Below the pieces are notes generated by a model, which saw only the letters and a list, made by a program, of their open reading frames with translations, did no database searches and was not told the origin of the DNA. The translations under genes were made by a program, and so were the position numbers. A stretch of DNA of 64,000 nucleotides from Pseudomonadota bacterium (GTDB taxonomy: Bacteria > Desulfobacterota > Desulfobulbia > Desulfobulbales > JAHJIY01): NCBI GenBank assembly GCA_018823175.1, contig JAHJIY010000040.1, forward strand, positions 16,888-80,887, given 5' to 3'. Each line of letters opens with the position of its first letter. Within the stretch, counting starts at the first letter, position 1. Shown here piece after piece: positions 15,310 to 58,507 of this stretch.

Positions 15310-15417
15310 TACCGCAAGGGCATAAGTTTCGTTCTGAGCCGAATAGCGGCTCAACTCAGCTTCATACCGCAAGGGCATAAGTTTCGTTCTGAGCCGACTA
15401 GCGGCTCAACTCAGCTT
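15310..15417. repeat. REP-like intergenic element, copies 2 and 3 in direct tandem (15310-15362, 15365-15417)
   Basis: Two 53-nt units TACCGCAAGGGCATAAGTTTCGTTCTGAGCCGA(A/C)TAGCGGCTCAACTCAGCTT differ at one base. They lie between convergent genes, and each has a 7-bp stem TGAGCCG/CGGCTCA. Confidence 0.85.
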
Positions 15418-15908
15418 TATAACGGCGGGGCCGGTGGCGTCGCCCCGGCAATCTGGAACTGCCAGCTGAATTCCTCACTCTGCAAATTGCCTTCGGAGTC
15501 AATCATCTCACCGGCGATCGTCGCGGTATAATAAAAATTGGCCGCCAAGGGTGAATCAGGGATGAACTTGCCCTTTCTCTCTTCCGGAATATAGGTGATA
15601 GTCCCGCTGACCGGCTGGACCCCGGAGGTATCATCCGTCAAGACGGCGGTGAGACTGGTCAACTGAACCCCATCCACCGCCTCGTTAAAGATCACATAGA
15701 TCCCTTCCAACTGCAGATCGGCGGCATAAACATCCTGCTCGTTTGAATCCGGATAATAAGAGACGATGGCCAGCGGTTCGCCGGACTCCGGATTATCGAT
15801 GGGTGGCGTGTCGTCATCAGGCAGGGTGGTGGAATGATCTCGACTTGAACCACCACAGCCACTGATTAACAAGGTTAAAATTACCACAATGATTGTCTTG
15901 AGTTTCAT
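15417..15908 (-). CDS. Lipoprotein with SbsA/Big_5-like Ig domain (cassette 1, family L)
   Basis: MKLKTIIVVILTLLISGC is a signal peptide plus lipobox. The rest follows the Big_5-like pattern (VSYYPDSNEQDV...IYVIFNEAVDG...GTITY...KGKFIP..PL..NFYYTATI..EMIDSEGN). Paralogues at 29701-30177 and 37824-38303. Confidence 0.8.
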   Translation of the reverse strand: MKLKTIIVVILTLLISGCGGSSRDHSTTLPDDDTPPIDNPESGEPLAIVSYYPDSNEQDVYAADLQLEGIYVIFNEAVDGVQLTSLTAVLTDDTSGVQPVSGTITYIPEERKGKFIPDSPLAANFYYTATIAGEMIDSEGNLQSEEFSWQFQIAGATPPAPPL

Positions 15909-16054
15909 CTCTGCTCTCCTTTCGGCAGTGTAATATTCAGATAATATTTACTTCGCAATCAGGGTTAGAACGGAGAGAAATCGATATTCGGCAAGCACCG
16001 GCAAATTTTCCTGCCGGTCCCGACAATCGATTTATCCCCTTTTCCCTCACCCCT

Positions 16055-16528
16055 TCAGCTATCTCTTTTGACCCGGACCAGAAATTCCGAGTGGGTGGCG
16101 GGAAGCGCGATATAAGCGGAGTCTTTCGCCATCGCAATCTTTTCTCCCTGCGCCTGATCAATCAATTCAAGCCAGCATCCGGCCGGCAATCCGGCCTGGT
16201 CCCAACTGATGGTTACGGCGGTTTCATTGGCGGTATCCACCACCAGTAGCCATTCCTCAAATTTAGGGCCGGTTCCCCGAATGTCCCGCCACAAGGAACC
16301 GCCGCCACCGACAAACCGGGCCTGCAGATCGCCGGAGAGCATGGCCGGCACATCGTAGCGGCCATCCTGTTGCCCGGTCGCGTCAAACTTGGCCCCGAAA
16401 GTGAGGCGGCTATTCGCCGCTCCGGCGCTGATCGCCAGATTGACCTCCCACTCCGCTCCGGCCTGAACCAGGGCGGGAAGGCACAATAACATTGCCAAGG
16501 TCGGAATTATCGTCTGCCATGTTTTCAT
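16055..16528 (-). CDS. 157-aa secreted protein of unknown function (cassette 1, family S)
   Basis: Signal peptide MKTWQTIIPTLAMLLCLPALVQA. Its ATG overlaps the stop of the upstream giant gene (ATGA, 16525-16528). Paralogues at 30283-30756 and, disrupted, at 38413-38886. Confidence 0.75.
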   Translation of the reverse strand: MKTWQTIIPTLAMLLCLPALVQAGAEWEVNLAISAGAANSRLTFGAKFDATGQQDGRYDVPAMLSGDLQARFVGGGGSLWRDIRGTGPKFEEWLLVVDTANETAVTISWDQAGLPAGCWLELIDQAQGEKIAMAKDSAYIALPATHSEFLVRVKRDS

Positions 16529-19500
16529 CTTGCTATCTCCGTAAAAGGGTTGGGAATAATCAATTTATAATCGGCATCGTCCTGGACCACATAGATCCAA
16601 TAAGCTCGCCAGGGGATAAGCAAGGCATCCGGCGCAGCGCCGGCGCTCTCAAAACTGTAAACCCCACCCCAATCATCACCCTGATATGTATAAATGGCGT
16701 TAATCAGGAAGTTGCCTGCACAGGCACCGGTCCAGGCCAGCGGGTCTTCATCATTGCGCCGGACCTTTACCTCACTCAATAAAACCTGTCCACCGTACGG
16801 ATTGGTGATAATATTCCAACCCGGCGTCAAATCCATGGTAAATTCAGGCTCGACATATTCGGGATATTCGTGCAAGTCCGGCAGAGAGGGCAGATCTTCC
16901 CGATGCATGAAATAACCCTGCCCCGGCACATTAAACCAATTGTTGTCATAGGGCGCAAAGTAACCGTTATTCCCGGCGGTGGAAATCCCGTTGGAAATCC
17001 AGCCAAAGATCCGGCTGCTGCCCAAAAGATCTTCCAGGCCGATTTCTTCAAGCAGCGCCTTGGCCAAGCCGACCATATTTGCCCCGTTCAATAATTCGAT
17101 CACCGGTCCCGGCAGATTCCCGCTGGCCAACAACGGATCAATTTCAGGATCATACTCCTCCTCGCCCCGGAGCTCGACCCGATATTCGTGATAACCGGCC
17201 GGTCCCAGCCTGGTATCGTAGGTACACTCCACCCTGGCGTTAAAATTCACTGGTTCCGGCCCGCAATCCATCCGGACGGGATAGCCATCCAGAATCAGCC
17301 AGACGCTGGTGGTCGTCGAGTAATACAGCTCAGCCATGAAATGGTATGTCACATCCAGACTCGGCATCCCGTCCACCAGATTATCAACGGCGTCAATGCC
17401 GTCGGTCCGCTCGAAATCAACCCGCAGAATACCGTCCCGATACAAACCAGGATCATAGGGATAGGCGTCCAGATCGCCGCAGACTCCGTCACCGTCGGCA
17501 TCATTTTCGGGATCATCGGGGCAAAGGTCATCGGCGTCAGGAATCCCGTCGTGATCACGGTCCGGGACCAGGGCAAAAGTCGCGCTCACCGTGCAATCAG
17601 CAACCATCGGACCGGTGATATAGTGACCAGCGCCGGACATCGCCCCGCCACAACCGGAGACCGATTGGATGGCATAGCCACTGTCCGGGGTAACGGCAAA
17701 GGAGTAGACCTCATTTTCATTAACGGTCTGCGGAGTAACAGGGTTAATCGCCCCGCCCGAACCAGCCGCCGGGGTCACCGTATATTGCGAACCACTGGGT
17801 GGCGAAACAGAATTTGCCGCAAAGGTTGCCGCCACCGCGCAATCGGCAATAATCGCATTGGTCGTATAAACCACTCCGCTCGTGCTGTCGGAGGGATTAC
17901 CGACGTAGCCGCCGGTACAGGTGCCGCCCACCGGGGTCACCAGATGATAGCCGTTACCGGGGATAATAGTGAAGCTGGGGGTGGCATTATGCAAGACAGT
18001 CTGCGTCCCAACCGGATTGATCGAGCCGCCGCCGCCGGCCGAAGCGGTCACCGTGTACTGATTATCAGCAAAGGTCGCATCGACTGAACAATCAGCGGTC
18101 ACCGCCGTGGTTGTATAAATCACGCCGGTGGTCGCATTGTTGGGATCACCGGTATAAGTGCCGCCGCAAGTGCCGCCCACCGGAGTAACCAGATGAAAGC
18201 CGGCAGCCGGAATGATCGTAAAGTCGGTGCTGGTGTTATAATCCACAATCTGGGCGTTTACCGGGCTGATCGAACCGCCCACCCCAACCGAGGGGGTAAC
18301 CGTGTACTGCTCGGGAGTAAAGGTGGCGGTGACCACGCAATCGCTGGAAAGGGCGTCGATGATGAACTGAATACCCATCTGATAACCACCACAGCCGGAG
18401 ATTGAATCAAGCTGATAATGAGGATTCGCGGCACCATACATATCGATGTAGCTCCCGTCCGGGTACTCTTCTTCACAATCGCCGGGGCAATCAATTCCCG
18501 GGGGGCTCAGTGAGGATATCGTCCCCCCACCCGCCGGGGAAATCACCACGGTGAGCTTGGGCCTGAACACCTCGAAGGCCCCCATATCGACAATGCCATC
18601 GATTATCCGGGGATGGCCGTTGAAATCCGTAAGAGTCAAGGCCGGCGCCCCATTAGCCCCGGTATTCAGGCAAGGTGAACCAACCTGCAGGTAGTAATAA
18701 TTGATCTGCGTAGGATCGCCGCCCATCAAAAGAGGATCCGCGCTGAGATTAGCGCCCGAGGTGAATGAGTCCGTATTGGTGATCACTTCCGAGGTGGTCA
18801 GATCGTTATTGTACAGGCGAACGGCGCTCCCGGTTCCATCGAGATCGGCATCACTATCCACATAGAGATCGGGAGACGGCGCTCCGACCGGGGCCAAAGC
18901 GACGATCAAGGCCTGCGGCGGCCCCCCGACGCCAATTTCATTGTCCCAGAAGATATTATTATAGATGTCGGCCGAGCTGGAATTGTAATATAAGGCGATT
19001 CCGCCGCCTCCCCCGACTAGGCCGGCGGTATTGCCATAGATGGTATTATTGGTAATCACTATATTGCCCAAACCGGCGGCAACCCCTACCCCGCCGGCCG
19101 CCCCGTTCTCGCTCAAATTGCCGGCGATCAGATTATTGGTAATCAGGGCATTGCCTGCATCGACCTTGATCCCGAGGCCGCCGCCGTTGGCCGCGCCTGG
19201 AATGACGCCGGAAGCAATATTGCCGATTAAATCGTTGCCATCAATTGTCACATCAGAGGTAACGGCATAGACCGCCAGACCGCCGCCGGAAGCGGGATCA
19301 TTATTGCCCGAATTGTCGGTGGTGGCCCGATTATTTTTGAAGGTATTATTATTCACCGTCACCGTGTTATTATCGGCCCAGACCATCAGACCGCCGCCGA
19401 AAATTCCGGCCTGCCCGCTGATGGAGTTATCCGCGAAATTACAATCGGAAACCGCAACCGTACCGTTGGCGGAACGCACATAGGCGCCACCGCCATCTGG

Positions 19501-22500
19501 ATCAAATCCGACTCCCGCGTTGGTGAGAAAATCAGTTGAGGTGACCGTCAGGTTACCGCCGGTTGACTGGAGCCAGGCGCCGCCGCCCATAGTGTCATTG
19601 CCTTCCGTCGCATTGCCGGAGAATTCGCAATCCGTCACCGCAACCGGCGCCGCGCCGGTGACCACGGCCAGACCGCCGCCTCCCTCGTGAACCACATCGT
19701 TATAACCGTTTTGAAAGGTGATAGCGGAGATGTCAATCGCCGCCGCCGAATCATCGGCCAGGCCGGTGGTGTCGATCCGCAATGGACAAAACGTACCATC
19801 GCCGTCCAGGATGGTAACGCCTGCTCCGGCTCCCTGAATAATCAGCCCATGATTATCGGAACCAAAACCGCCCTGCCCCGGACTATAGAAATTGGTAGCC
19901 GCTACCAGGAAGGTGTTGCCCGAAATGGTGATCGTCACCTCGGCCGGAACATAGCTGGCGGCAATCAGGGCGCTGGCCAGATCACAATCGCCATCTGAGC
20001 AATCACCGTCCGAAGCCGGATTGACCGTAAAAGCCGTGAGATAGGTAAAGGTCGCGTTCACCGTACAGTCGGCAATCACCGGATCAGTAGTATAGGTCTG
20101 ACCAACCAGATTACCGCCGCAGGTACCGCCGGTAGTATCGATCATATAACCGGGATCCGGGGTGAGGGTAAAGGCGATGGTCTGATTTTGGCCCACCAAC
20201 TGATCGGAAGATGGGCTGATGGCGCCGTCCGCGCCGGCCGACGGAGTGACCAGAAAGTCGATCTCCTGGGCCAGGCTGTCAGCAGACGCGGCATGAGTAA
20301 CGTCACCGGAGTAATTGGCGCTGATAGTGTGCGCCCCCGGGGTGAGCGTTGCGATATCGCAAGAAGCCTGATCAGCGACAATGGCTACTGCAGAGCAGAA
20401 GGTAGTGGCGCCTTCGCTAAAATCCACCGTCCCGGTGGCACCACTGGTGACCGTGGCGGTAAAGGTCAGGGAGTCCCCAACATGGGCCGGATTGGTCCCG
20501 GCGGTTAAGGCCAGGGTGGTGGACGAGATCGGCAACGGAATATCCTTGACCGCTGTTACCGTCCAGGCCTGGTTGGTGGTGTCCTCGGCAGTTACGGTAT
20601 AGGTCACCGGCGCGGTAAAATCCTGGACCGCGCCGGAAAGCGGGCTGACCGTGGCCAGGGCTGAAACGGTAATCGCCGGGATCAGGGCCGTCACATCGGC
20701 ATTGGTGTACAGATGAAAGGTCACGGTATGGCCGCCCCCGTCAATGATGGTCACCCCGACCTGCCCGGGCACGGTGAAATCGGTGATCTCTTTGGCGCTG
20801 CTCTGATTAATAGTAAAAGACAAGGTCCTGACCGTGGAGCGGTTGAGGTAGGCATCCTCGCAAATCACATAAATTTTATAGGTACCGGCCGGATAGCCGC
20901 TGGTCTCAAAAGAGCTGTTTCGCCAGTTCCCCGCCGTATTATAAGCGGTTTGATCACTATAATATGCCGGATTACCAAGACTGTTCAGACCAGCCGCCAC
21001 CTGGTCGTTTGACGGCGTCCCGGTCCCCGATGGTTCAACGACAAACCTGATGGTCCCCGCCTCATCATAGGACATACTGAAACTGGCGATGGTCCCGGCA
21101 AAAGTAACCGAGGTATTGCCGGACCAGTTTGGCGGAGTCTGATCCTGCATGGTGGTGAAGGTGGTGCTGACAATGTTGGAGACATTGCCGGTCGGGTCGA
21201 TCCCCACCGCATAGACAATATAATCGGTTGAGTGCATAAGGCCACTGATCGTCGGGGTATAGGTCGTTCCGAAACCGTGAGCAACGTGACTGTCAATGAT
21301 AATCTCGCCGCCATTGGCCGGAGCTGGGTCCGTGTTTAATAAGACCAGAACAAACAGATCGGCGCTCTCATCGGAGCTTATTTCAAGCACCGCTGACAAA
21401 TCAGCCGGGGTGACATTATCGATAGCCACGGTCGGCGGGGTCACGTCTCCTGGATTCACCCCGGCCTTGACCAGCACCTCGATATTTTTCAAGGCGCCCG
21501 ATGGCCGCAGCGCGGTCATCATCACCTCGGTATCAACAGGCGGCGAGGTCATCGTGACCTGGCCGGTACCATTATCAATGGCCAATATCCCCGGCGGCAG
21601 CGCAGACCAGGTCGCGCCATCGGTCAACGGCACTATAAAATCATGACGAACCATGGCCACGTTATCACTCAGGGCGGGGACAGACACATTCTCCAGAAGA
21701 AAAACCGGCATAACCCCGGCCAGGGAACTTTCCGCCGCAACGGAAGCCGGCACGGCATCAAAGGCCGCAAGTCTTGGGTAGAGCCCCGCCCGAGCCTGCC
21801 AAACTAGGCCACTCCAGGCGGCAGGGATCGCCCCGACTCCGGTCATCTGAGAGGTAGTTTGGGCGGTGACCCCGGCAAAGGTGACGCTGTCCTGATCAAA
21901 GCCGTACCAAACCCCGGCGGCCTGGCCGTCGAACAGGCAATCGGTCATGGTGATCTGACTGGTGGTATTAACCATTCCGACCACGGCCCCTAATAAACTC
22001 CGCCCACTATTGGCCGTGGTTACCCGGCCGGCGGCATAACAGTTACTGACAGCAAGAGTCAGATTGGTCCCGCCGTAATGATGGATCTGACCGAGCAGGC
22101 CACCAACGTATCGGGTATACCAAGCCTCGTTATTAGCGCTGGTCAGGGCCAGATCGCAGGTGGAAAAACAATCGCTGATGGTCAGAGAGGTATTTGAAGC
22201 GTTGATCAGGGAAAGTTGGCCGATCAATCCGCCAAGTTCACCGGTATTGGCGGCGGAATGAATCCGACCGGTAACGAAACAGCCGGTCAAACTGGAAGAC
22301 CCGGAAAATCCGTCAATCCCCCAGTAACCGACCAAACCGCCACCCATGGTAATCAACCCGTCCACATTGACCTCAACCAACCCAAGATTTTTAATAGTTA
22401 CCGGACCGCTGTTGGTATTAATCCAACCGAACAGGCCGAACTCCTCCCAGGTGGTAGCGTAATGGGTCATATTTTTAATGACGTGACCGTTACCGTCAAA

Positions 22501-22827
22501 GTTGCCCTTGAACCGATTGCTGTTGGTGCCGATCATCTGCCAGGTGCGGCCGGCCAGATCAAGGTCGGCGTCGAGCCGGATATATTTATTAACAAAACTG
22601 TTACCGGCGTTAACCAGCGAAGCCAGTCCCGCCAGCTCCGCCTCGGTATCGATCACGTATGGGTCGACCGCTCCGCCCTGCCCCAAACCGGTCTGGGTAG
22701 CGTACCACGTCGTTTCCGGCACTCCGGCATCCTGCCAGCTGGCCGCATCCGCTCTCCGTACCGGCATGACAACCAGCAGCAAGATTGCCATGATCAGTCC
22801 CACCAAAAATCCTGTTCGTTTCAGCAT
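16525..22827 (-). CDS. Giant secreted surface protein 1 (~2100 aa): GLUG-motif region, Ig-like domains, parallel beta-helix, 5 InlB-B-repeat-like domains, TSP3-like Ca-binding repeats, shared CTD
   Basis: The track ORF starts at TTG 22845. ATG 22827 is preferred (GAGGAGG 9 nt upstream) and gives MLKRTGFLVGLIMAILLLVVMPVRRADA. GLUG-type GGLVG/GGLIG/GGLLG; NNTFKNN../GGGL beta-helix turns ending DMGAFE; repeated YTVT..GGSI.P....GGTCGG...DC.V.ATF; DRDHDGIPDADDLCPDDPENDADGDGVCGD. Confidence 0.9.
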   Translation of the reverse strand: MLKRTGFLVGLIMAILLLVVMPVRRADAASWQDAGVPETTWYATQTGLGQGGAVDPYVIDTEAELAGLASLVNAGNSFVNKYIRLDADLDLAGRTWQMIGTNSNRFKGNFDGNGHVIKNMTHYATTWEEFGLFGWINTNSGPVTIKNLGLVEVNVDGLITMGGGLVGYWGIDGFSGSSSLTGCFVTGRIHSAANTGELGGLIGQLSLINASNTSLTISDCFSTCDLALTSANNEAWYTRYVGGLLGQIHHYGGTNLTLAVSNCYAAGRVTTANSGRSLLGAVVGMVNTTSQITMTDCLFDGQAAGVWYGFDQDSVTFAGVTAQTTSQMTGVGAIPAAWSGLVWQARAGLYPRLAAFDAVPASVAAESSLAGVMPVFLLENVSVPALSDNVAMVRHDFIVPLTDGATWSALPPGILAIDNGTGQVTMTSPPVDTEVMMTALRPSGALKNIEVLVKAGVNPGDVTPPTVAIDNVTPADLSAVLEISSDESADLFVLVLLNTDPAPANGGEIIIDSHVAHGFGTTYTPTISGLMHSTDYIVYAVGIDPTGNVSNIVSTTFTTMQDQTPPNWSGNTSVTFAGTIASFSMSYDEAGTIRFVVEPSGTGTPSNDQVAAGLNSLGNPAYYSDQTAYNTAGNWRNSSFETSGYPAGTYKIYVICEDAYLNRSTVRTLSFTINQSSAKEITDFTVPGQVGVTIIDGGGHTVTFHLYTNADVTALIPAITVSALATVSPLSGAVQDFTAPVTYTVTAEDTTNQAWTVTAVKDIPLPISSTTLALTAGTNPAHVGDSLTFTATVTSGATGTVDFSEGATTFCSAVAIVADQASCDIATLTPGAHTISANYSGDVTHAASADSLAQEIDFLVTPSAGADGAISPSSDQLVGQNQTIAFTLTPDPGYMIDTTGGTCGGNLVGQTYTTDPVIADCTVNATFTYLTAFTVNPASDGDCSDGDCDLASALIAASYVPAEVTITISGNTFLVAATNFYSPGQGGFGSDNHGLIIQGAGAGVTILDGDGTFCPLRIDTTGLADDSAAAIDISAITFQNGYNDVVHEGGGGLAVVTGAAPVAVTDCEFSGNATEGNDTMGGGAWLQSTGGNLTVTSTDFLTNAGVGFDPDGGGAYVRSANGTVAVSDCNFADNSISGQAGIFGGGLMVWADNNTVTVNNNTFKNNRATTDNSGNNDPASGGGLAVYAVTSDVTIDGNDLIGNIASGVIPGAANGGGLGIKVDAGNALITNNLIAGNLSENGAAGGVGVAAGLGNIVITNNTIYGNTAGLVGGGGGIALYYNSSSADIYNNIFWDNEIGVGGPPQALIVALAPVGAPSPDLYVDSDADLDGTGSAVRLYNNDLTTSEVITNTDSFTSGANLSADPLLMGGDPTQINYYYLQVGSPCLNTGANGAPALTLTDFNGHPRIIDGIVDMGAFEVFRPKLTVVISPAGGGTISSLSPPGIDCPGDCEEEYPDGSYIDMYGAANPHYQLDSISGCGGYQMGIQFIIDALSSDCVVTATFTPEQYTVTPSVGVGGSISPVNAQIVDYNTSTDFTIIPAAGFHLVTPVGGTCGGTYTGDPNNATTGVIYTTTAVTADCSVDATFADNQYTVTASAGGGGSINPVGTQTVLHNATPSFTIIPGNGYHLVTPVGGTCTGGYVGNPSDSTSGVVYTTNAIIADCAVAATFAANSVSPPSGSQYTVTPAAGSGGAINPVTPQTVNENEVYSFAVTPDSGYAIQSVSGCGGAMSGAGHYITGPMVADCTVSATFALVPDRDHDGIPDADDLCPDDPENDADGDGVCGDLDAYPYDPGLYRDGILRVDFERTDGIDAVDNLVDGMPSLDVTYHFMAELYYSTTTSVWLILDGYPVRMDCGPEPVNFNARVECTYDTRLGPAGYHEYRVELRGEEEYDPEIDPLLASGNLPGPVIELLNGANMVGLAKALLEEIGLEDLLGSSRIFGWISNGISTAGNNGYFAPYDNNWFNVPGQGYFMHREDLPSLPDLHEYPEYVEPEFTMDLTPGWNIITNPYGGQVLLSEVKVRRNDEDPLAWTGACAGNFLINAIYTYQGDDWGGVYSFESAGAAPDALLIPWRAYWIYVVQDDADYKLIIPNPFTEIAR
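16528..17448 (-). other. Shared ~300-aa C-terminal domain (CTD), copy in giant 1
   Basis: The last 307 aa align along their whole length with the C-termini of the ORFs ending at 30753, 38888 and 49184. Shared blocks: [77 protein letters not shown]. Confidence 0.85.
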
Positions 22828-22942
22828 CGATCCAATCCTCCTCAACCTTCTTATTCAGCCAATTATTTCATTTTCCCGATCAATATCGGCTTTCTCTAAT
22901 AACTTTCGCTAAAACATTTACCTTTAATACCCAGCAAATAAG

Positions 22943-22958
22943 AGCAACTATTATGCCA
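22943..22958 (-). promoter_or_regulatory. Sigma-54 (-24/-12) promoter for giant gene 1
   Basis: The minus strand reads TGGCATAATAGTTGCT, i.e. GG-N10-GC with canonical spacing and 13 of 16 consensus-type positions (TGGCAC-N5-TTGCW). It lies ~115 nt upstream of ATG 22827. Palindromes TGGCCGAAAGCCA (23049-23061) and GGCATTATGCC (23144-23154) lie 90-190 bp further upstream. Confidence 0.6.
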
Positions 22959-23311
22959 CCGAACACCAATACCAAATTAACGCAATGATAACAAAGAGTT
23001 ACATGAAACAATCCACACCAACAAAAGGAGACAAAGGGTCGCAACCTCTGGCCGAAAGCCAGTCAAGATATTATAAATAATTAAATTATTACAACAAGTT
23101 ACCAGTAAAAGACAAAAGTAGTGGGCTGGACAAAAGTTACGGGGGCATTATGCCGAAATAAAGAGTGGATCAACTTTAAACTTTCCAGATCTGCCAATGG
23201 TTGAAGCCGCCGGTCATTTTGGATCTTGCACCCATCCATGTGTTTGGCTATTATGGCGAAAATAAAGTTCATCCAACTAATCGGAAAATTCACCGAGGAC
23301 AGGCCAGGCCC

Positions 23312-26860
<3,549 letters not shown>

Positions 26861-26926
26861 AAATTATAAATATTAAAATAACCAGCTCAACTAACCAACA
26901 TTAGCTGAAACACTTTTTATCATTTT

Positions 26927-28129
26927 ATGAAAAACTTCAATGAATGCCGCCTGCTCCTGGTTGATGACACCAGGACCAATATCGATATCCTGGTCAACGG
27001 ACTCAAGGATCTCTATAAACTTAGCATCGCCATGGACGGGGAGACGGCGCTTAACATCGTCAAGGCCCAAAGACCGGATTTGATCCTGCTTGATATCATG
27101 ATGCCGGAGATAGACGGCTACGAGGTTTGTAGAATCCTCCAGGAAGACCCGGAAACCAGCGGCATCCCGATCATCTTTCTTACCGCCCTCGACCATGCGG
27201 CAGACAAGGCCGCCGCCTTTGAACAGGGCGCCGTGGACTATATCACCAAGCCCTTTGAAATGATCGAGGTCAAGGCCCGGATCAAGACCCACCTGAGCCT
27301 GAAACTCTCCCGGGAAGAGATGGTCCGAATGCATGAAGAGGAAATGCTCCAGGCCGCCAAAATGATCTCCATCGGCACTCTGGTCGCCGGCATGGGCCAC
27401 GAGATCAACAACCCGACCGCCTACATTCTTTCCAACACCTATAATCTGCAGCGGATCTGGGGCGACCTCGGCCGCATTCTGACCGACCATCGAGAGACCC
27501 TGGCCGAATGCGCCATAGGCAACCTCACATATGAGGATCTGCTGGAAACCATGCCCCAGCTGCTGACCGGAATCAGGGAGGGGGCCGAGCGGATTAACCG
27601 GACCGTGGCCGGGCTCAAGGATTTCGCCCGCAAGGAAAAAACCGACCCGGACCACTATCAGCCCGTATACCTAAACGATGTGGTGGATAAAGGGCTGACC
27701 CTGATGGCCGGTCAGATCAAAAAATATACCAATAACTTCCGGATGGACCTCGGCCTTGATCTGCCGGCGGTAAAAGGAAGTTTTCACCAGATGGAACAGG
27801 TGCTGATCAACCTGTTGTTAAACGGCGCTCAGGCCCTGACCGACAAGGGGCAGGCCCTCCGACTGACGACCACCTACGACCTGAAAAAAGAAGAGGTCCG
27901 ACTGACCATCATTGATGAAGGGGAAGGCATGGACCAGGAAAGACAGAAACGAATTTTCGAACATTTTTTCACCACTAAGACCGAAGACAAAGGGACCGGA
28001 CTCGGCCTTGCCATTACGGCCAAAATCATCAAGGATCATAACAGCCGGATCGAAGTCGCTTCGACCCCCGGCCAAGGCACCATGATCACCGTATCTTTTC
28101 CAGCCCTCCGTGAAGAAATCAGGGGATAA
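26927..28129 (+). CDS. Response-regulator receiver fused to a histidine kinase core (REC-HisKA-HATPase)
   Basis: 400 aa. LLLVDDTRTN...LILLDIMMPEIDGYEV is the receiver; VAGMGHEINNP is the H-box; DEGEGM and GTGLGLAI are HATPase motifs. Confidence 0.9.
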   Translation: MKNFNECRLLLVDDTRTNIDILVNGLKDLYKLSIAMDGETALNIVKAQRPDLILLDIMMPEIDGYEVCRILQEDPETSGIPIIFLTALDHAADKAAAFEQGAVDYITKPFEMIEVKARIKTHLSLKLSREEMVRMHEEEMLQAAKMISIGTLVAGMGHEINNPTAYILSNTYNLQRIWGDLGRILTDHRETLAECAIGNLTYEDLLETMPQLLTGIREGAERINRTVAGLKDFARKEKTDPDHYQPVYLNDVVDKGLTLMAGQIKKYTNNFRMDLGLDLPAVKGSFHQMEQVLINLLLNGAQALTDKGQALRLTTTYDLKKEEVRLTIIDEGEGMDQERQKRIFEHFFTTKTEDKGTGLGLAITAKIIKDHNSRIEVASTPGQGTMITVSFPALREEIRG

Positions 28130-28174
28130 AAAATTGACGAAAGTAAACATTTTATGCGAGAGGAATAATCAAAG

Positions 28175-29700: not shown

Positions 29701-30177
29701 TCATAAGGGCGGCGGCGGCGAAATCAGGCCAACCTGAAACTGCCAGCTGAATTCCTTGTTCTGAACATTTCCATCGGCATCGATAATCTCGCCGGAAATC
29801 GTTGCCGTATAGTAATAACTGGCAAACAGCGGGGCGTCGGGGACGAACTTGCCTTTTCTTTCTTCCGCAATATAGCTGATGGTACCGGTGACCGACTGGA
29901 CCCCGGAGGTATCGTCAGTCAGAGTGGCGGTAAGGCTCGTAAGGGTGGCGCCATCCACCGCCTCGTTAAAGATCACATAAATTCCGTTATCCTGCAGATC
30001 GGAGGCATAGACCGCCTGCTCGTTTGAGTCTGGATAATAAGAAACCACCGATAAAGAAGGGACCGGGTCAGGGTTTGTGCCATTATCATCCGGAACAACG
30101 TCGTCATACTTGCTGCCACCATCACAGCCGACGAATAATAAGGCCAAAATTGCGACCACGATCATCTTAATTTTCAT
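29701..30177 (-). CDS. Lipoprotein with SbsA/Big_5-like Ig domain (cassette 2, family L)
   Basis: ATG 30177 gives MKIKMIVVAILALLFVGC (the track ORF extends to 30222). About 60-70 percent identical to the copies at 15417 and 37824. RBS GACAGGAG is conserved with copy 3. Confidence 0.8.
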   Translation of the reverse strand: MKIKMIVVAILALLFVGCDGGSKYDDVVPDDNGTNPDPVPSLSVVSYYPDSNEQAVYASDLQDNGIYVIFNEAVDGATLTSLTATLTDDTSGVQSVTGTISYIAEERKGKFVPDAPLFASYYYTATISGEIIDADGNVQNKEFSWQFQVGLISPPPPL

Positions 30178-38886: not shown

Positions 38887-38887
38887 C

Positions 38888-41779: not shown

Positions 41780-41792
41780 GGGGACTCCTCTC

Positions 41793-48770: not shown

Positions 48771-49052
48771 GGAATCTGGCTCAATATTTTGCCTACAATA
48801 TTACCGGGAATTTATATTTTTAAAATGATTATAAATTGCAATCATCAAGAACTAACGTTACCAAATACCAATCCATCATCATTTTTTCCTCGCCTCTCTA
48901 CCAGCTAATAAAGTGACCCTTTCGCCATGAATCGATGATCTCGCGAAGCATTGAAATGATCAAACAGCGCAACATGATTTTTCTATAGTAATTTTCACTT
49001 TTCGGACCAGATTTTCAACTCCCCACCGAACAGGTCAGCATCACCCAGACAG

Positions 49053-49087
49053 AAAGAGCCGGGCAACATCAAGTAGCCCGGCTCTTT
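49053..49087 (-). terminator. Rho-independent terminator-like hairpin downstream of giant gene 4
   Basis: AAAGAGCCGGGC (49053-49064) pairs with GCCCGGCTCTTT (49076-49087) around an 11-nt loop. On the minus strand the stem is followed by CTGTCT.. (moderately U-rich). It lies ~100 nt after the stop at 49184. Confidence 0.55.
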
Positions 49088-49183
49088 ATATTTACTGCTG
49101 TGCAATAATCGAACAACCGCCCGCCACGATTGTCCAACCGTAAAGATTGGCAACGCAAGACAAAGAAGAAACTTTTACAATTT

Positions 49184-52100
49184 TCATTCTCCCCGTGGAT
49201 TTGGAATAATCAGTTTGTAATCCGCGTCATTCCGGACCACATAGACCCAGTAACCCAGCCAGGGGACAAGCCTGGCCTCCGGGTCGCCGCCGGCGCTGGC
49301 AAAACCGTAAACCGAGCCCCAGTCTTCGCCCTGGTATGAATAGATGGCGTTGACCAGAAGGTTGGCGCCGCAGGCGTCAGTCCAGGGCAGCGAATCTTCA
49401 TCATTACGCTGGAGCTTCACATCAGCCAATAAGACCTGTCCGCCATAAGGGTTGGTGATCATGTTCCAGCCCGGGGCCAGGGGCACGATGAATTGGGCAT
49501 CGGTATAATCCGGATATGCGCTCAGATCAGGTAGAGATGCCAGATTCTGCCGCTCGATAATATAACCCTGACCGGGAACATTAAACCGGTTGTTATCGTA
49601 ATATTCAAATGACCCGTTATTCCCGTCGCTGGAAAGACCGGAAGAGACCCAACGATAAATGATACTGCTGCCCAGCAGCTCTTCCAGGTCGATGCCGGCA
49701 AGCTCTTTGGCCAGCCCCACCATATTGGCGCCATTGAGAAGTTCGATTGTCGGACCAGGCTGCTCAAAGCTTTGGGCCAGCGGCGAAACTGATGGATCAT
49801 AATCAGATACCTGACGGACCTCGACATGATAGCCGTGGAATCCGGCCGGACCAAGATTGGTCTCAAAGCTACACTCCACCGGTATGCTGAAGTCCACCGG
49901 CTCTGTTCCACAATCCATTTGTTGCGGATAACCGTTGATCACCAGCCAGACACTGTCGGCACTAGCGGAATCAACCAGGGCTGAAAATCGGAAAATCACA
50001 TTCTGACTGGGGAGTAAACCGATACGATTATTCCAGGGATCTTCACCATCAGTCCGGACAAAACCGACCCGGTCGATGCCCGGTTCGAACAAGGCCGGAT
50101 CATTGGGAAAGCTGTCTGCGCCATCACAGACCCCGTCACCATCCGTATCGTTATTCGGATCATCGGGGCAACTATCATCCGAATCAGCAATACCATCGTT
50201 ATCCCGGTCTAAGACAGAGACGATGAACGATGCTTCAACCGTGCAGTCAATGATCACCGGTGCCGTAGTAAAAATGTTATTGATTAATACCCCGCCGCAG
50301 GTGCCACCCACGCTTCCGATTTTATAACCGGATTCCGGGGTCAAGGTAAACGAAATGACAGATCCGGCGTTAGTTATCAAATTAAAAGACGGACTGATCG
50401 TTCCGTGTTCGCCCATCGAGGGACTAACCGTATAGGTCACCGGTGGCGGCACATCATCATTGGATATCAACAATTGGGCGTTTGCTTGCGCACCTTGGGC
50501 AACACCGGAGTAATTACTCAAACTCAGATTAACCGTCTCAGCCGGCTCTACCGTTGAATCATCGATTATTGAAACCGAAAATGTTTTGGCAGCGCCATCA
50601 CCAAAGGCCCAATTCAAGATCCCGGCACTGGCGGTGTAATCGCTACCCGCGATTGCGGTACCGTTGGTTGTGGCATAATTAACCGAAACCGCGCCATCGG
50701 TGCTGCCGGTCCGGGTGGCGGTGATGGTGGCGGTGCCACCGTTTTCGGCAACGGAATAGGTGGCGCTGCTGAACTGGACCGAGCCAGGGGTATATTCAAA
50801 GGCCCCGATATCACAGGTAGCGGTGGTATCGAAATTACCGTCCGCCGGGCGGGCCATATCCCGCTGATCGGTTGGTTCGCAGGTGGCATTGTCACCGGCA
50901 TCAATGGCCGGACTGGTATACAGTAGACCAAGGGTCCGGGTCGGGCCGCCATGATCCAGTAAGGTGCCCAGGACCGGGTCACCGGAAAGGGCCGGTGAAC
51001 AGGTGTTGTCTTCGATCAGATTGTTGGTGTTGGTCGCGATGGTCCCGGTATTGAAGCAATCAGAGCCAAAACTGTTGGCGATGATCGTATTGAGAAAGTG
51101 AAGAGTCCCAACATTATAGATTCCACCACCATTGCCCGAGAAGGCCCAGTTCCCACTTATGGTATTATTTGCCAGGGTAAGAGTCCCGGTCGAATAAATG
51201 CCACCACCGTCGACATTGACACTGTCTTCCCAGAAGGTGCTGTTGGTGACGGTCGCCGTTCCGGTTGAGTAGATCCCACCACCGTTTCCAGCAGAGGTAT
51301 CATTTTCGAGGGTACAGCTAGTCACGGTCAAGGTGCCGCCGACATTGGCAATCCCGCCGCCATTGCCAGCCGTGAATCCGTGGTTTTCTCTGATGGTCGA
51401 ATGATCGATGGAGAGGATTCCGGCGTTTAAAATGCCGGCACCGTCAGCTGAGTCGACATAGCCATCTTGAACCGTTACATAGGAAAGATATACCACGGTC
51501 CCCCCGGAAATATTCAAAACCCGGGAGGCAGTGTTGCCGCTGATTACCAGGCTGGTGGCCGTGGGACCGGTAAAGGTCAGATTCTTGTTGATGGCCAACT
51601 CGCCGCTGGTCAGGGTGATGGTGCCGGAGATACCGGTCAGGTCAATGATATCACCGCTCGCCGCATCGGCAATGGCCTGCCGCAGGGAACCGGCCCCACT
51701 ATCGTTGGTATTGGTCACGATAATCGTCGCCGGAACATTACTCGCCGTGATGGTGTTGCCGGTGAGGTCGGAGGAATCGCCGGCGATGACGGCGGTATTC
51801 CAGTCATCAGCGGCCGCCAGATTATATGCAGTTGCATCAACGGAGGAGAGCCCTGACTTATTCAAAAGGAGATCAACCGCCGCTTTGTCCGTCGCACTGA
51901 GGATCAGGGTGAACTGGCTCGCGGAATCACGGTTGACGTCGGTCGTGTCGGTCAGGGTATAGGTGCCCCCGCCTTGCCCGGTGAAGGTGAGCCTTGAGGC
52001 GTCGAGATCACTGCCCCCACCATTGGCCTGAATATCGGTGCCGGTGACCACCAGGGTGCCGGTTGCAAAATCATAGGTCGCCGAGGTGATTTTGGGGTTG

Positions 52101-55100
52101 AAGATGACAGTCACACCATTGGGCCCGGCATCCGAAATATCCGGGATCACATCGGCCGCCGTCAGCCAGTCATCGGCCGCAGTGATGTTATAGGTTGTCG
52201 CATCATTGGATGAGGACCCCTGTTTATTCAGTAACAGATCAACTTGTGTTTTATCCCCACCTGCCAAAGTAAAGCTGAATGAGGTTGCAGCGGAGATTTC
52301 GACGTCTGAGGTCGTGGTGAGGGTATAGATGCCACCACCCTCACCGGTGAAGGTGAACATGGAAAGATCAACATCATTGGCCACCCCGATTTTACTGAAG
52401 AGGTTAGTGCCGGTAGCGACTACAGCTCCGGTATCAGTATTATAGACGGCCGAGGTAACGGTCGGGACCGCCACATTGCTGACGGTGATCCCGTTGCCGG
52501 TAAGATCAGAGATATCCATTGCCGCAGGGGCACCGGGGAGCCAGTTGTCGGCGGCCGCCAGGTTGTATGTCACTGTAGCGGAGGTCAGGCCATTCCGATT
52601 GAGAAGGCTATGAACATTGAGCTGATCGGTGGCGCTCAGGGTGACGGTGACAGACGTTGAACTGGTCAACTCAACATCGCTGGTGTCGGTCAGGGTATAA
52701 CTGCCTCCTTCACCGGTCACGGTCAAGGTCGAGGCATCGAGATCATTGGTGGCTCCACTGTTGCCGACCAGGTTGGTACCGGTGATCACCATTTGCCCGG
52801 TACTCCAGTCGAAGGTGGCCGAGGTGATGGTTGGCCCGGCGTAGTTACTGACGGTGATAGCATTGCCGGTAAGATCGGCAACAGCAACGGCCGGATCAGC
52901 GCCGGCCGCCCAGTCTTCGGCAGCGGCCAGATTGTAGGTGGTACCCCCTGCCGAGCTGATGCCGTTATTATTCAACAAGGCTTCAACGTTGGTGAGATCC
53001 GTCCCGGCCAGAGTGATGGAGAACTGGGTGGAGGAGGTGATCTCCACATCGCTCGCTGAAGTTAGAGTATGGGTTGTCCCCCCTTCACCGGTGAAGGTCA
53101 AGGTCGAGATATCGATATCGTTGGTCGCGCCGATTTTCGACAAAAAGCCGGTACCGGTTACCGCCAGCACATTGGTATTGGAATCATAGGTGGCGCTGGT
53201 GATGGTTGGGATGGCCACATTGCTGACCGTGATGCCGTTACCGGCCAGATCGGCCACCACCACCGCCGGATCCGCGCCCGCATTCCAGTCTTCGGCGGCG
53301 GCGAGGTTGTAGGTGGTGGCGCTGGTTGAGGCGGTGCCGTTTTTGTTCATGATCTGGTTGATCGCACCCTTATCGGTGGCGGAGAGGGTAAGGGTAGACG
53401 AAGTGCCGCTGGTAATCTCGACATTGGCGGTGTCAGTCAACGTATAGGTTCCGCCTTCACCGGTTACGGTGAATTTGTTGGCAACAATGTCGTTGGTCGA
53501 GCCGTTCAACTGAAGGAGACCGGTACCGGTTACGGCCAAGACTCCGGTGGCAGCATCATAGGTGGCGCTGGTGATGATCGGCACCGCCACGTTGCTGACG
53601 GTGATGCCGTTGCCGGTAAGATCGGCGACAACCACCGCTGGGTCGGCACCGCCAGCCCAGTCCTCGGCAGCGGCAAGGTTGTAGGTAGTGGCATTGGTGG
53701 AGCTAGTGCCATTTTTGTTCATAATTAGATTAAGCGCGGCCCGGTCGGTGCCATTGGTCATCACCGAGAAGGCCGTGCCACTGGTAATTTCCACACTGGC
53801 AGTAGTGAGCGTGTGGGTGCTACCACCCTCGCCGGTCAGGGTCAGTTTGGAGACATCGATGTCGTTGGTCGCCCCGTCAAACTTGAGGAATCCGGTGCCG
53901 GTAACAACCAGGGCGCCGGTGACAGCATTGTAAGTAGCTGTGGTGATGGTTGGGACAGCCACGTTACTGGCGGTGATAGGATTGCCGGTCAGGTCAGAGG
54001 TGTCGCCGGCGGTGACCTGGGCATCCCAGTCGTCAGCTGCAGCCAGATTATAGGTCGTGCCGTTGGTGGAGGCGGTACCGTTCTTATTGACGATCTGATT
54101 AATGCCAGCCTGATCCGTAGCACTCAAAACGAGGGTAAATGACGTCGCGCTGGAAAGCTCGACATTTGCCGAATCCGTCAGGGTATAGGTTGTGCCGCCT
54201 TCAGCCGTGAAGGTGAATTTATTGGCAGTAATATCATTGGTTACCCCGGCCATCGCCTGCATATTCGTGCCGGTCACCACCAGAGTGCCGGTGGCGGCGT
54301 TATAGGTGGCCGAGGTTATTTTCGGGTTGATCGAAACCGTTATCCCGTTGGTCGCGTCGGTGATGCTGGCTGCCGGATCCGCGCCGGCAAGCCAGTCATC
54401 AGCCGCCGCCAGATTATAAGTAGTGGCATCGGCAGCGCTGGTACCGAGCTGATTCAACAACGCATCGACGTTGGTTTTATCCGCACCGGACAGGGTGAGG
54501 GTAAAGGCCGTGGCCGAGGTGATCTCGACGTTCGATGCACTGGTCAGGGTATAAGCCGCCCCGCCGCCGCCCTGTCCGGTAAAGGTGAGTTTTGAGATAA
54601 CGATATCATTGCCTGGGCCGCCCTTCTTAAAAAAGTTGGTGCCGGTGACCACCACCACCCCGGTATCGGAGTCGTAGGTCGCGGACGTTATGGACGGCGT
54701 GGCGACGTTACTCACCGTAATCCCGTTGCCGGTCAGATCACTGATATTAGGCGTCGATGGCGCTCCAGGCAGCCAGTTATCTACCGCCGACAGGTTGTAG
54801 ATTACAGCACTGCTGGATACGGTGCCGTTCTTGTTCAGAAGACCGCGGACGATCAATTGCTCGGTGGCCGAAAGGGTCAGGGTGACGGTGGTGGCACTGG
54901 ACAGCTCCGCATCCGGGGTGTCGTTTAACGTATAGTTACCCGCCTCACCGGTGATGGTCACCGTGGAGGCGTCAAGATCATTGGTCGCACCAAATGCATT
55001 GACCAAATTGGTACCGGTTATGGCCAGCTGATCGGTAGCCCAATCATAGGTGGCACTGGTTATGGTCGGGGCCGTCCAGTTACTGACGGTGATAGCATTG

Positions 55101-58100
55101 GTTCCGTCGGTGATATCCACCGCCCCATCGGCGCCCCGATTCCAGTTATCAGCTGCCGCCAGGTTGTAGGTGGTGCTGCTATCGGAACTTGCACCGTCCT
55201 TGTTCAGCAGTCGTTCCACATTGAACAGATCGGCTCCGGACAGGGTGGCGGAAAACTGAGTGGCGGAGGTAATCTCCACATCGGTAGCCGTGGTCAGGGT
55301 GTACGTATTGCCTGCTTCGCCGGTAAAGGTGAACGTGGAGAGATCAATATCGTTGGTGGCCCCGGCAAATGGGAAGAACCCTGTCCCCGATACCGTCATG
55401 ACATTGGTGGCATAATCGTAGGTTGCCGAGGTAATGGTCGGCGCGGTCACATTGCTGACGGTAATGCCGTTCCAGGAATCAAGTACGACCACCGCCGGGT
55501 CCGCCCCGGCGGCCCAGTCTTCCGCCGCTTCCAGATTATAGGTCGTTCCACCGGTGGCGGTGGTGCCGTTCTTGTTCATGATCAGATTGACCGCAGCCTT
55601 ATCGGTCCCGCTCAAGGTCACGGTGAATGAGGTGGACGAGAAGATCTCCACATCAGCAGTCGAGGTCAAGGCATGGGTCGACCCACCCTCACCGGTGATC
55701 GTCAACTTGGCAACCACGATATCATTGTTGGCACCGCTCAACGACAGCAACCCTGTCCCGGTCACCACCAAAACTCCGGTGGAGGTATCATAGGTCGCAC
55801 TCGTGACGGTGGGCACGGCAACGTTGCTGGCGGTGATGCCGTTGCCGGTCAAGTCTGCAACGACCACCGCCGGATCCGACCCTGCCGCCCAGTCTTCCGC
55901 CGCCGCCAGATTGTAGGTGGTGGCACTGGTGGAGCTGGTGCCGTTCTTGTTGACATACAGATTGACACCCGCTTTATCGGTAGCGCTGAGGGTCAGGGTG
56001 AAAGCGGTGCCCGAGGTGATCTCGACGTTGGCGGTGTCGGTCAGGGTGTAGGTTCCGCCTTCGGCGGTGATGGTGAACTTGTTGGCCACGATATCGTTGG
56101 TGCCACCGGTCAGCTTAAGGAAGCCGGTGCCGGTCACCATCAGGTTACCGGTGGCGGCATCGTAGGTCGCCGAGGTGATGGCGGGGACTGCAACGTTGCT
56201 GACGGTGATACCGTTGCTGGCATCGGCGATCGAGCCCCCGGTGATAACCGTGTTCCAGTCATCGGCGGCAGCGAGATTGAAGATAGTACCACCGGTGGAG
56301 ACGGTACCGTTTTTGTTCAGCATCTGATTGACCGCCGCCTTGTCGGTGGCGCTGAGGGTAATGGAAAACCCGGTGCCGGAGGTGATCTCGACGTTAGCTG
56401 TGTCAGTCAGAGAGTAGGTCGCACCGCCTTCGCCTGTTACGGTGAATTTGTTGGCGGTGATGTCGTTGGTCGCGCCGATGGCGTTGACCATATTGGTTCC
56501 AGTTACCGCCAGCACACCGGTGCTGGCATCGTAGGTAGCTGAGCTGATGGTCGGGGTCTGTACGTTGCTGACGGTCACGCCGTTGCCGGTTAGATCGGCG
56601 TTACCGGCGTTGGCAGGATTCCAATCGGCGGCGGCAGCAATATTATAAGTTGTAATATCAGTGGATGAGGTGCCGTTTTTATTCAGCAAGCCTTCAACAT
56701 GTGTCTGATCGGCCGCATTCAAGGTCACGGTAAACGAGGTGGCCGAAGTGAGTTCAACGTTCGCCGAAGTCAGGGTGTAGCTGCCCCCAGCTTCCCCGGT
56801 GAGGCTCAATTTAGCGACATCGATGTCGTTGTTCGCCCCCCCGGTTGCGGTCAAGCCGGTTCCAGTCACGACCAGCGAGTTGGTGCTGGCATCGTAGGTG
56901 GCGGAGGTGATCGTGGGGCCTGTAGGAGCCGTTTCCCCCGCCAGAATCGAGCCATTAGGGGTATCGTTATAGGCGTAATCAAACATTGTCCGACCGAAAT
57001 TATTCGTCCCGGTGACCGTCATCCGAATCCAGCCGTAGTGGATACTCCCGGCTCGATCGAATTTTATCCCCAGATATTTACTGGTAGCATTAACCCATGG
57101 CCCTTGCGAACTGTAGACCATGACACCCCCATTGTTGGGGGCAAAGGTCTGGCCTGCACTGATCGCGGCATTGGTGGCCAGGGCCTTACCATACCAGTTC
57201 CACGTGTAAGTAGATACGGGTTGGGCTGTTTGAGGGATAACCAGCATTCTCATCCCGGCAGAACCGGTGACCCGAATGTCGGAGGCAGCTACCGCGGTCT
57301 GAGGTCCGAATTTGATAGTGATTTCGGTGTCGCCATCATTATCGATATCCACCGCGATGGTCTGGGTCGTCACATCCACCGGATCGGTGTAGATCACTGC
57401 GGCCGAGGCATCACGCCAGCCTGTTCCGACCAGCAAGGCCGTTCCTGAGAGGATGGCCAAGCCACTAACGGTGTTCAAGGAAAATCCTTGAAAGTTGTGC
57501 TTGGCCGTAAAAGTGGCCAGATGACTCACTGGAACCGCTTCAAACCCCAGACAGGGTGATTGTAGACCATCCCTATCTTGCGACGGACAAATATCTCCCC
57601 TAAGAATTTTCTCACCAGAAATATTTTTCAGCTCATGCCAAGACAGGCTATGTTGATAAGCCGGTGTGTGTCCGGGAAGAAAATGATATCCGAGGAAATC
57701 AAACCCGTTTGAGCTCTGCCCCAAGAAAAACGCGTCGTCTGATAGTGAAAGTCCGAGGGCCCCCAACTGTTCCAGGACGGCTGGCCTGACCTGATGCAGG
57801 GTCCATCGGGTGGGAGTGATCAAAAGCCACTCATCCATATAGCGGGCATAAAAGCCGTTCTGTCCGGTCAGCAGATCATCAAGCGCCTGCAGATACAACG
57901 AGGTCATGATTGGCGTCAGTGGGCTATCGATGGCGATCCCCGTATCCAATTCATAGAATGTGCCATTATCTGAGACCGTTTGATGCAAGTATCGCCACAG
58001 GAGCTGCTGGAGAGATGGTTCTTCGGGAAAAGCCTCGGACAATTTCCGGTAAAGGATTGAGTGATCAATCTGCCCGCAGAAATTCTGGAGGTCTCCCCGC

Positions 58101-58507
58101 ATCACCCAGGACTGGCTATTTGCCTGAAGGTAGTCATCAGCCGTTTTTACCGCCCCATCAATCCCGGCAGCCCCGAGCCGGTAAAAACCCCGGTTCGCCA
58201 ATGCGCGAGAGAGATGTTCCTCCATTACTAACCCCATGGCCTTGAGGACGATGAGATCACCGACCTCATAGACATCCTGCGAGATCCCGTTCCGCAGAAC
58301 CCTGGTTCGGACTTGAAAGCAGTAACTCCCCGAAACAAATTGTTGCCGAATCACCGCTTTTAGTTGCAACCAGTTCCCAGGGCTGACAACATCCCGTAAT
58401 TGCGTATCCTGAAGCCACTGAAAGGCTGCCTCCAGACATGAATCCGCAGAAATTTTGGCCATTAACGGTTGAGCTGCTGAATCTTGATCCATGATGTCAC
58501 CATTCAC
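49184..58507 (-). CDS. Giant surface protein 4 (3107-aa maximal ORF): RT-like N-terminal region in frame, signal-peptide-like segment, 14 x ~123-aa tandem repeats, parallel beta-helix, Calx-beta-like, InlB-B-like, TSP3-like repeats, shared CTD
   Basis: Uninterrupted ORF from GTG 58507. Aa ~344-369 ([26 protein letters not shown]) look like a signal peptide, so the adhesin may start independently at GTG 57529. [19 protein letters not shown] opens the beta-helix, which ends [28 protein letters not shown] is Calx-beta-like. [30 protein letters not shown]. The CTD ends [11 protein letters not shown]. Confidence 0.85.
49187..50095 (-). other. Shared CTD, copy in giant 4
   Basis: The last 303 aa are homologous to the other CTDs. 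This is the only copy not followed by family S and family L genes. Confidence 0.85.
51734..56917 (-). repeat. Coding tandem array: 14 repeats of ~370 nt (~123 aa) in giant gene 4
   Basis: Each unit starts P.(I/V)T(S/T)A(T/V)(Y/F)(D/N)...G.L.VTGT and contains NDI....(F/L)T.TGEGG..YTLT...VE(I/L)(T/S)S.T.F..TLS..D......(L/M)NKNGT.S.....YNLAAA.DW and ends GNGITVSNV. Units are diverged (roughly 50-70 percent aa identity). Confidence 0.85.
57530..58507 (-). other. Reverse-transcriptase-like (RVT_1-type fingers/palm) region at the 5' end of the giant ORF
   Basis: Aa 1-326. Motif-1/2-like [13 protein letters not shown]...[16 protein letters not shown]; motif 3 [22 protein letters not shown]; motif 4 [22 protein letters not shown]; motif 5 [12 protein letters not shown] (YMDE at 57830-57841 where RTs have YxDD); motif 6/7 GFDFLGYHF. 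No thumb/X domain and no stop codon before the adhesin part. Visibly less GC-rich than the adhesin body by eye (not counted). Confidence 0.65.

Follow-up and report, generated by a model that had tools for sequence, protein, structure and literature searches.

A C-terminal domain shared by giant secreted proteins of a Desulfobacterota bacterium, with adjacent small-protein and lipoprotein genes: a possible docking and anchoring module

Three cassettes on the minus strand

The stretch of DNA analyzed here, 64,000 nucleotides of contig JAHJIY010000040.1 (assembly GCA_018823175.1, Desulfobulbales; hereafter the window), encodes four giant secreted proteins of a sediment bacterium (G1-G4), all of which end with one C-terminal domain (CTD) of approximately 300 residues. 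Between positions 15417 and 58507 of the minus strand the same order of genes recurs three times: a giant protein with a Sec signal, a secreted protein of 157 residues and a lipoprotein with a Big_5 domain (Table 1). A preliminary description of this DNA had delineated these three cassettes, and we could confirm both their coordinates and their gene order. The overlap between the start codon of the small gene and the stop codon of the giant gene (ATGA) in the two intact cassettes was also verified. The gap that separates the small gene from the lipoprotein gene, previously given as about 105-145 nt, measures 146 nt in cassette 1, 105 nt in cassette 2 and about 110 nt in cassette 3. The small protein of cassette 1 is 100% identical to hypothetical protein KKB30_06120 from a metagenome-assembled genome (MAG) labelled "Proteobacteria bacterium".

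Table 1. Features of the window discussed in the text (aa, amino acids; ORF, open reading frame).
Feature	Position	Strand	Description
906-aa protein	358-3078	minus	two N-terminal CxxC...CxxC motifs, transmembrane segment, very long pentapeptide-repeat region
Tandem units past LP1	15300-15416	minus	two units of ~55 nt, each with a hairpin; GAGCCGCTAnTCGGCTC
Lipoprotein LP1	15417-15908	minus	163 aa; lipobox LISGC, acidic/proline-rich linker, Big_5 (E 9.7e-11), PPAPPL tail
Polyproline tail codons of lipoprotein genes	15417-15437, 29701-29721, 37824-37844	minus	PPAPPL / PPPPL
Small secreted protein S1	16055-16528	minus	157 aa; signal peptide, all-beta (model); ATG overlaps G1 stop (ATGA)
Giant G1	16525-22827	minus	2100 aa; Sec signal, Big_3_5, beta-helix, choice-of-anchor Q, TSP3-like repeats, CTD
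CTD of G1	16528-17427	minus	last 300 aa
Sigma-54-like -24/-12 element	22943-22958	minus	TGGCATAATAGTTGCT; 131 nt upstream of G1 start codon
Regulatory genes	23201-29596	plus	hybrid Cache histidine kinase, kinase with receiver domain, sigma-54 activator
Lipoprotein LP2	29701-30177	minus	158 aa counted from ORF Met16; Big_5, PPPPL tail
Small secreted protein S2	30283-30756	minus	157 aa; 78% identity to S1; ATGA overlap with G2 stop
Giant G2	30753-35477	minus	1574 aa; two GLUG blocks, Ig-like repeats, CTD; without clear TSP3 repeats
Lipoprotein LP3	37824-38303	minus	159 aa; Big_5, PPPPL tail
Small gene of cassette 3	38413-38887	minus	two 1-nt homopolymer indels break the frame
Giant G3	38888-41779	minus	963 aa from ATG at 41779; cadherin-like/Big_9 repeats, TSP3-like repeats, CTD
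Lcl_C protein	41793-43055	minus	420 aa
DUF11/isopeptide-domain protein	43170-48770	minus	1866 aa
Terminator-like hairpin	49050-49087	minus	GC-rich, then T-rich run; ~100 nt past G4 stop
Giant G4	49184-57529	minus	2781 aa from GTG at 57529; plausible signal peptide at start
UG4-class reverse-transcriptase ORF	57530-58507	minus	first 326 codons of the long ORF ending in G4

As the preliminary description had observed, the giants can be aligned with one another over their last ~300 residues only. Identity in this region is 58-62%, while the passengers, that is the parts in front of it, differ. A hidden Markov model (HMM) of the CTD recognizes the window giants with E values between 1e-153 and 1e-160, and therefore we can exclude chance as the origin of the shared tail. 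In G4 the CTD follows tandem repeats of ~124 residues, a beta-helix with choice-of-anchor Q, Calx-beta domains and TSP3-like repeats. Such acidic TSP3-like repeats also precede the CTD in G1, G3 and several relatives, and are largely missing in G2. The choice-of-anchor Q domain in G1 and G4 is, judging by its NCBIfam name, presumably one that occurs in proteins ending in alternative anchoring signals.

The CTD consists of an N-terminal beta-sandwich subdomain, a linker of low model confidence and a C-terminal subdomain with the motifs PGWNxIxNPYGG and PWxxYW. An AlphaFold2 (AF2) model built on 11 sequences shows two mostly beta subdomains with a mean predicted local distance difference test score (pLDDT) of 66.6. 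An invariant LPD(L/F)S, inside SLPDLxxYP at CTD residues ~178-189, falls into the segment of lowest model confidence (pLDDT <50); this loop could serve as a processing or recognition site. The corresponding model of S1, computed from a single sequence, is all-beta with a pLDDT of 61.6. For the CTD and the small protein alike, no match was obtained in Pfam, which was scanned up to E = 10 with seven CTDs and seven small proteins, in NCBIfam, in PADLOC or among the sequences of the PDB (single-sequence and profile queries). We considered whether the two families might be related to each other, or whether the CTD might have arisen by internal duplication, and rejected both ideas based on hhalign probabilities of 0.3% and ≤0.2%, respectively.

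The giants carry Sec-type signal peptides at their N-termini, and the preliminary description had recognized no known export or anchoring signal beyond these. No Pfam or NCBIfam model for such a signal matched the giants in our searches either. Type IX secretion system (T9SS) tails (Por_Secre_tail, CHU_C or TIGR04183-type) are absent from the giants and from the seven CTDs at E up to 10. Neither the giants nor their neighbours contain an Autotransporter, TPS or ShlB/POTRA family that would indicate type V secretion. No HemolysinCabind match typical of RTX proteins was found in the giants, and the window lacks transporter genes for type I secretion. PEP-CTERM, LPXTG or other NCBIfam sorting domains could not be detected; over their last 22 residues all CTD proteins are polar and of beta type, with no hydrophobic helix. 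Their C-termini read IIPNP plus two to seven further residues, with no terminal aromatic beta-signal.

The lipoproteins of the window match Big_5 (PF13205) with 42.8-45.4 bits at a cutoff of 23.6 bits, and relatives from other loci reach 46-149 bits. This generic Ig-like domain is the only assignment that could be made for the third gene. A lipobox cysteine is present in every third-gene lipoprotein, and in LP1-LP3 it is combined with an acidic/proline-rich linker and a polyproline C-terminus. In nearly all third-gene lipoproteins with an intact C-terminus, whether they contain Big_5 or FN3, a polyproline tail plus a hydrophobic residue closes the sequence. Among LP1-LP3 and the loci L001, L002, L005, L007 and L020-L023 this tail appears as PPAPPL, PPPPL, LPPPPPFP, PPNPPQPPPF, PPPLPDF or APPPPP, and the lipoprotein of L017 has a weaker variant that is poor in proline (PTLPCAPAI). 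To judge from these sequences, the tail looks like a conserved short linear motif. Hairpins lie just past LP1 (Table 1), and long ones are also found 3' of LP2 and LP3; the lipoprotein gene thus seems to be the last one of each operon. Scans for promoters, terminators and Rfam families across the cassettes were uninformative.

Three 1-nt homopolymer indels are located in cassette 3 (38413-38905). One of them, a deletion relative to G2, alters the tail of G3, and the other two break the small gene. Either the sequence has really decayed, leaving the small gene as a pseudogene, or the MAG was misassembled at this point. With G4 included, the genome contains four CTD genes and two intact small-protein genes. 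The last ~300 nt of G3 (38888-39200) and G4 (49184-49500) are 87-96% identical, compared to 56-74% for the remaining CTD-coding DNA. This pattern suggests that gene conversion has recently acted on the 3' ends of the two genes.

Occurrence of the three components in other genomes

Homologues of the small protein were collected by way of a word-index search, contig look-ups, a scan of species-representative genomes and a metagenome scan that used a narrower alignment. This collection contains 11 distinct loci for which upstream sequence is available (L001, L002, L005-L008, L015-L017, L018/19 and L022) from Desulfobacterota-type MAGs and metagenomes, with some of the MAGs labelled Desulfurivibrionaceae or Desulfuromonadales. 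In all 11 of these loci an ORF ending with the CTD lies directly upstream of the small gene (HMM E values 1e-65 to 1e-140). The spacer ranges from -4 to +15 nt in ten loci and is ~300 nt in L002. Pairwise identities of the CTDs and of the small proteins are correlated (r = 0.80 over 78 pairs), and adjacency is kept down to ~31-38% identity. These observations show that the CTD gene and the small-protein gene form a predicted operon that is tightly, usually translationally, coupled and long-standing. In seven of the ten loci where this could be assessed, the next gene encodes a lipobox protein that contains one or two Big_5 domains; in L006 and L007 this gene and the small gene share 4 nt. Thus, the third gene commonly encodes a lipoprotein in which a flexible linker is combined with one or two Ig-like domains and a C-terminal polyproline tail.

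Several loci depart from this layout. L020 and L021 encode the small protein and an FN3 lipoprotein (APPPPP tail) with no CTD within the ~260-270 nt of available upstream sequence. In L023 (1-1983) a divergent CTD gene is separated by 14 nt from the gene for a 415-aa lipoprotein (C-terminal Big_5, PPPLPDF tail), with no small gene, so CTD and lipoprotein can be linked even where the small protein is missing. Any two of the three components therefore also occur in the absence of the third. The preliminary description had proposed a three-gene module: co-occurrence of the three families outside this genome, the test it had set in advance, is indeed found, and none of them maps to a characterized family of unrelated function. 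The association is looser than claimed, as seen from L020, L021 and L023 and, in addition, from G4, downstream of which we found neither partner genes nor remnants of them, and from a distant subfamily of FN3+CTD proteins discussed below. Members of this subfamily that measure 466 residues are encoded directly downstream of MotA/ExbB-type and MotB/OmpA-type genes (L011-L014; P0013 and P0014 represent two related loci on contigs from several samples).

The passengers of the CTD are diverse. Proteins in the window contribute GLUG, beta-helix, cadherin-like and Calx-beta domains. Outside the window, the CTD terminates S8 peptidases that also contain cadherin-like repeats, an RCC1 propeller combined with TSP3 repeats, and proteins with InlB-B/Flg_new repeats, MopE-type metal motifs or LTD. 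This range shows that the CTD is a portable C-terminal domain on unrelated exported proteins, adhesin-like repeat proteins and enzymes alike.

The small-protein family is large and lacks annotation. An exhaustive profile search recovered 1213 cluster representatives at E ≤ 1e-3, including 58 at E ≤ 1e-30. The word-index search had strongly under-reported homologues, with eight and three to seven matches for the two families (CTD and small protein) as opposed to 1213 from the exhaustive search. Domain layouts were read in the 148 new matches among the best 150 listed. Stand-alone proteins of ≤200 aa make up 88 of these 148; they are typically ~150-165 residues long and start with a signal peptide. 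In the 60 longer members the small domain directly follows the signal peptide and is often repeated, with up to six copies. T9SS sorting tails are present in 11 of these 60 and dockerins in three; FlgD_ig, FN3, PKD and other Ig-like domains also occur. Since the domain stands in tandem inside secreted T9SS cargo, we conclude that it is extracellular and soluble, and we rejected the possibility that the small protein is an eight-stranded outer-membrane barrel. The family consensus, GWExNLxV...FGQxxDATDGxDGxYDVPAML...LWRDIR, includes an invariant acidic motif (DATDGxDGxYD) that resembles a calcium site. By analogy, the arrays in other phyla, in which the small domain is attached to a surface-anchoring signal, resemble scaffoldins.

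A possible docking module and alternative readings

Little is known about the way in which environmental diderms that do not belong to the model phyla retain giant adhesins and secreted enzymes at their surface, and the genes described here bear on this question. By analogy to cohesin and dockerin, we regard it as a realistic, if tentative, possibility that the CTD, the small protein and the lipoprotein form a docking and anchoring module. The small protein would bind the CTD, and the lipoprotein would tie the resulting complex to one of the envelope membranes, so that passengers of any kind would be kept and displayed on the cell. The CTD would then correspond to dockerin as the tail of the cargo, the small beta-sandwich to cohesin as the receptor, and the lipoprotein to the anchoring protein. 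The partners would act in trans, which would allow G4, as well as G3 with its broken partner gene, to persist beside two intact sets of partners. The ratio of four CTD genes to two intact small genes, the broken small gene and the homogenized 3' ends of G3 and G4 fit action in trans, and argue against strictly cognate pairs of the immunity or chaperone type.

In both the cohesin-dockerin system and the one proposed here, a C-terminal module is common to unrelated secreted proteins, a small beta-sandwich may act as its receptor and a separate protein provides the cell anchor. Tandem arrays of the receptor-type domain are likewise common to both; for the small domain, one such array is accompanied by a dockerin. 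The two differ in the size of the module (~300 aa for the CTD, ~70 aa for dockerin) and in the partner gene, which here lies directly 3' of each cargo gene of a cassette. They also differ in the host, a diderm Desulfobacterota with a lipoprotein anchor instead of an SLH or sortase anchor, and in that we infer binding for the present system. What is new are the parts and the per-gene arrangement of partners; diverse cargo proteins that share a single C-terminal module with a dedicated partner represent an organization of a known kind. We found no description of a CTD/small-protein/lipoprotein module in the literature. A broader claim seems possible but somewhat more doubtful, namely that Desulfobacterota possess an undescribed envelope docking system of cohesin-dockerin-like logic made from wholly new parts, with a small domain that would be a widespread receptor (at least 1200 clusters) shown by other phyla via T9SS tails.

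Several observations weigh against the docking proposal. The FN3+CTD proteins (431-466 aa), which contain no TSP3-like repeats, have neither partner next to them. Cohesin (PF00963) and Dockerin_1 produced no match up to E 10 in the seven small proteins or the seven CTDs, which limits the likeness to architecture. The fold search called for by the preliminary description did not help: Foldseek returned no match at E ≤ 0.001 for the AF2 models, which are of low confidence. No outer-membrane export route was identified for the giants. Finally, gene adjacency alone fits a chaperone or a role in secretion equally well. The preliminary description had suggested an anchoring or export module with interchangeable passengers. 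The range of passengers supports the interchange well, and the function is still deduced from gene order and architecture.

Two known anchoring systems invite comparison. T9SS CTDs are, like the domain described here, beta-rich, and they too form the very end of Sec-exported proteins whose passengers vary greatly. In contrast to these, the CTD of the giants is three to four times larger, comprises two subdomains and has dedicated adjacent partner genes. To our knowledge, T9SS is confined to the Fibrobacteres-Chlorobi-Bacteroidetes (FCB) group. The preliminary description had also drawn an analogy to TSP3 repeats in front of an OmpA_C anchor. The repeats of G1, G3, G4 and several relatives do resemble this arrangement. 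However, no OmpA_C is present here, and the CTD persists in the absence of repeats both in FN3+CTD proteins and in G2, which also keeps its partners. The analogy is therefore weak.

An alternative that we consider unlikely, although it deserves attention, holds that a periplasmic chaperone (the small protein) and a pilotin-like factor (the lipoprotein) together bind the CTD of a giant just exported and pass it on to outer-membrane export; in that case the CTD would act as a signal for secretion, and not as an anchor, and might be cleaved off later in the manner of a pre-peptidase C-terminal domain. The tight translational coupling between the giant and small genes, the Sec or lipoprotein signals on all three products, the lack of any other secretion signal in the giants and a possible processing site at the invariant LPD(L/F)S are all consistent with this idea. 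It is harder to reconcile with tandem copies of the small domain inside secreted T9SS cargo, which would be unusual for a periplasmic chaperone, or with G4 having no partner gene and G3 a broken one. Moreover, neither the window nor the related loci contain a gene for an outer-membrane channel or a secretion ATPase. Chaperone-usher pili offer a partial precedent in that a small periplasmic all-beta protein is encoded beside the gene for a surface structure. Unlike those systems, the present loci encode no usher, no match to a PapD-type chaperone or a pilin was found, and the small protein is a single domain of ~130 residues.

Giant adhesins often have ligand-binding domains near their C-terminus. 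The CTD may accordingly be read as a conserved ligand-binding head, lectin-like or matrix-binding, on variable stalks, with the small protein and the lipoprotein as co-expressed matrix or co-adhesin components and not as an anchor. The abundance of invariant Trp, Tyr, Gly and Asn residues in the CTD and the calcium-site-like motif of the small family would suit this role. We judge it rather improbable, because S8 peptidases, which are enzymes, carry the same CTD, because strict adjacency and coupling across deep divergence suggest a direct partnership, and because a lipoprotein with a lipid anchor and a long linker looks like a tether.

Far less probable still is that the CTD is a periplasm-acting toxin with the small protein and the lipoprotein as periplasmic immunity proteins. 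Polymorphic toxin loci are characteristically laid out with a C-terminal domain and, immediately after it, a small gene that is translationally coupled; the likeness to CdiA-CT/CdiI and Rhs loci thus consists of a giant secreted protein with such a gene at its 3' end, and immunity proteins against periplasm-acting effectors do bear signal peptides or lipoboxes. The polarity is reversed, however, with a conserved C-terminus and variable N-terminal parts, no toxin or defence model matched in PADLOC or Pfam, G4 is free of immunity genes and G3 is intact although its small gene is broken; the exported downstream proteins, the orphan CTD genes and the tandem small domains in large surface proteins also set the present loci apart.

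The docking module thus proposed offers three co-inherited parts, a portable tail of 300 residues, a small partner and a lipoprotein, that can be tested directly. Two sizeable protein families, one with more than 1000 sequence clusters, are placed outside the current domain libraries. If docking is true, the CTD could predict surface-displayed proteins in metagenomes and serve as a display tag.

Neighbouring genes and regulatory features

The reverse-transcriptase (RT) ORF upstream of G4 runs in frame into the signal peptide of the giant, with no stop codon in between. It matches the PADLOC model RT_UG4 with an E value of 1.9e-46 (profile positions 31-274 of 307) and contains YMDE instead of YxDD in motif C. 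An association of UG4 RTs with fimbrial genes has been reported, earlier UG4 "fusions" were put down to errors in ORF boundaries, and no enrichment in defence islands was seen (PMC9226505). The RT-G4 pair adds another juxtaposition of an RT and an adhesin, in which both the phylum and the type of adhesin are different. We considered whether this RT may diversify the CTD in the manner of a diversity-generating retroelement. This possibility was rejected, since the RT region is repeated nowhere else in the window, no pair of template and variable repeats is present and the differences between the CTDs of G3 and G4 show no adenine bias. The strong hairpin past the G4 stop looks like an intrinsic terminator and would separate G4 from the next gene.

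The sigma-54-like element upstream of G1 is a single match, with about two expected by chance in the whole window, and its position alone makes it suggestive. Beside it, and divergent from G1, lie the genes for the two kinases and the sigma-54 activator listed in Table 1. We detected no comparable element in front of G2, G3 or G4.

The genes for the Lcl_C protein and the DUF11/isopeptide-domain protein are located between G4 and G3 on the same strand and contribute a second shared tail to this locus. This other C-terminal module is BNR/Sortilin-like, measures ~125 residues with 52-67% identity, is duplicated in the larger protein and ends with NNGLPN. At the far end of the window, the pentapeptide region of the 906-aa protein is encoded by 20 copies of a 45-nt DNA repeat family.

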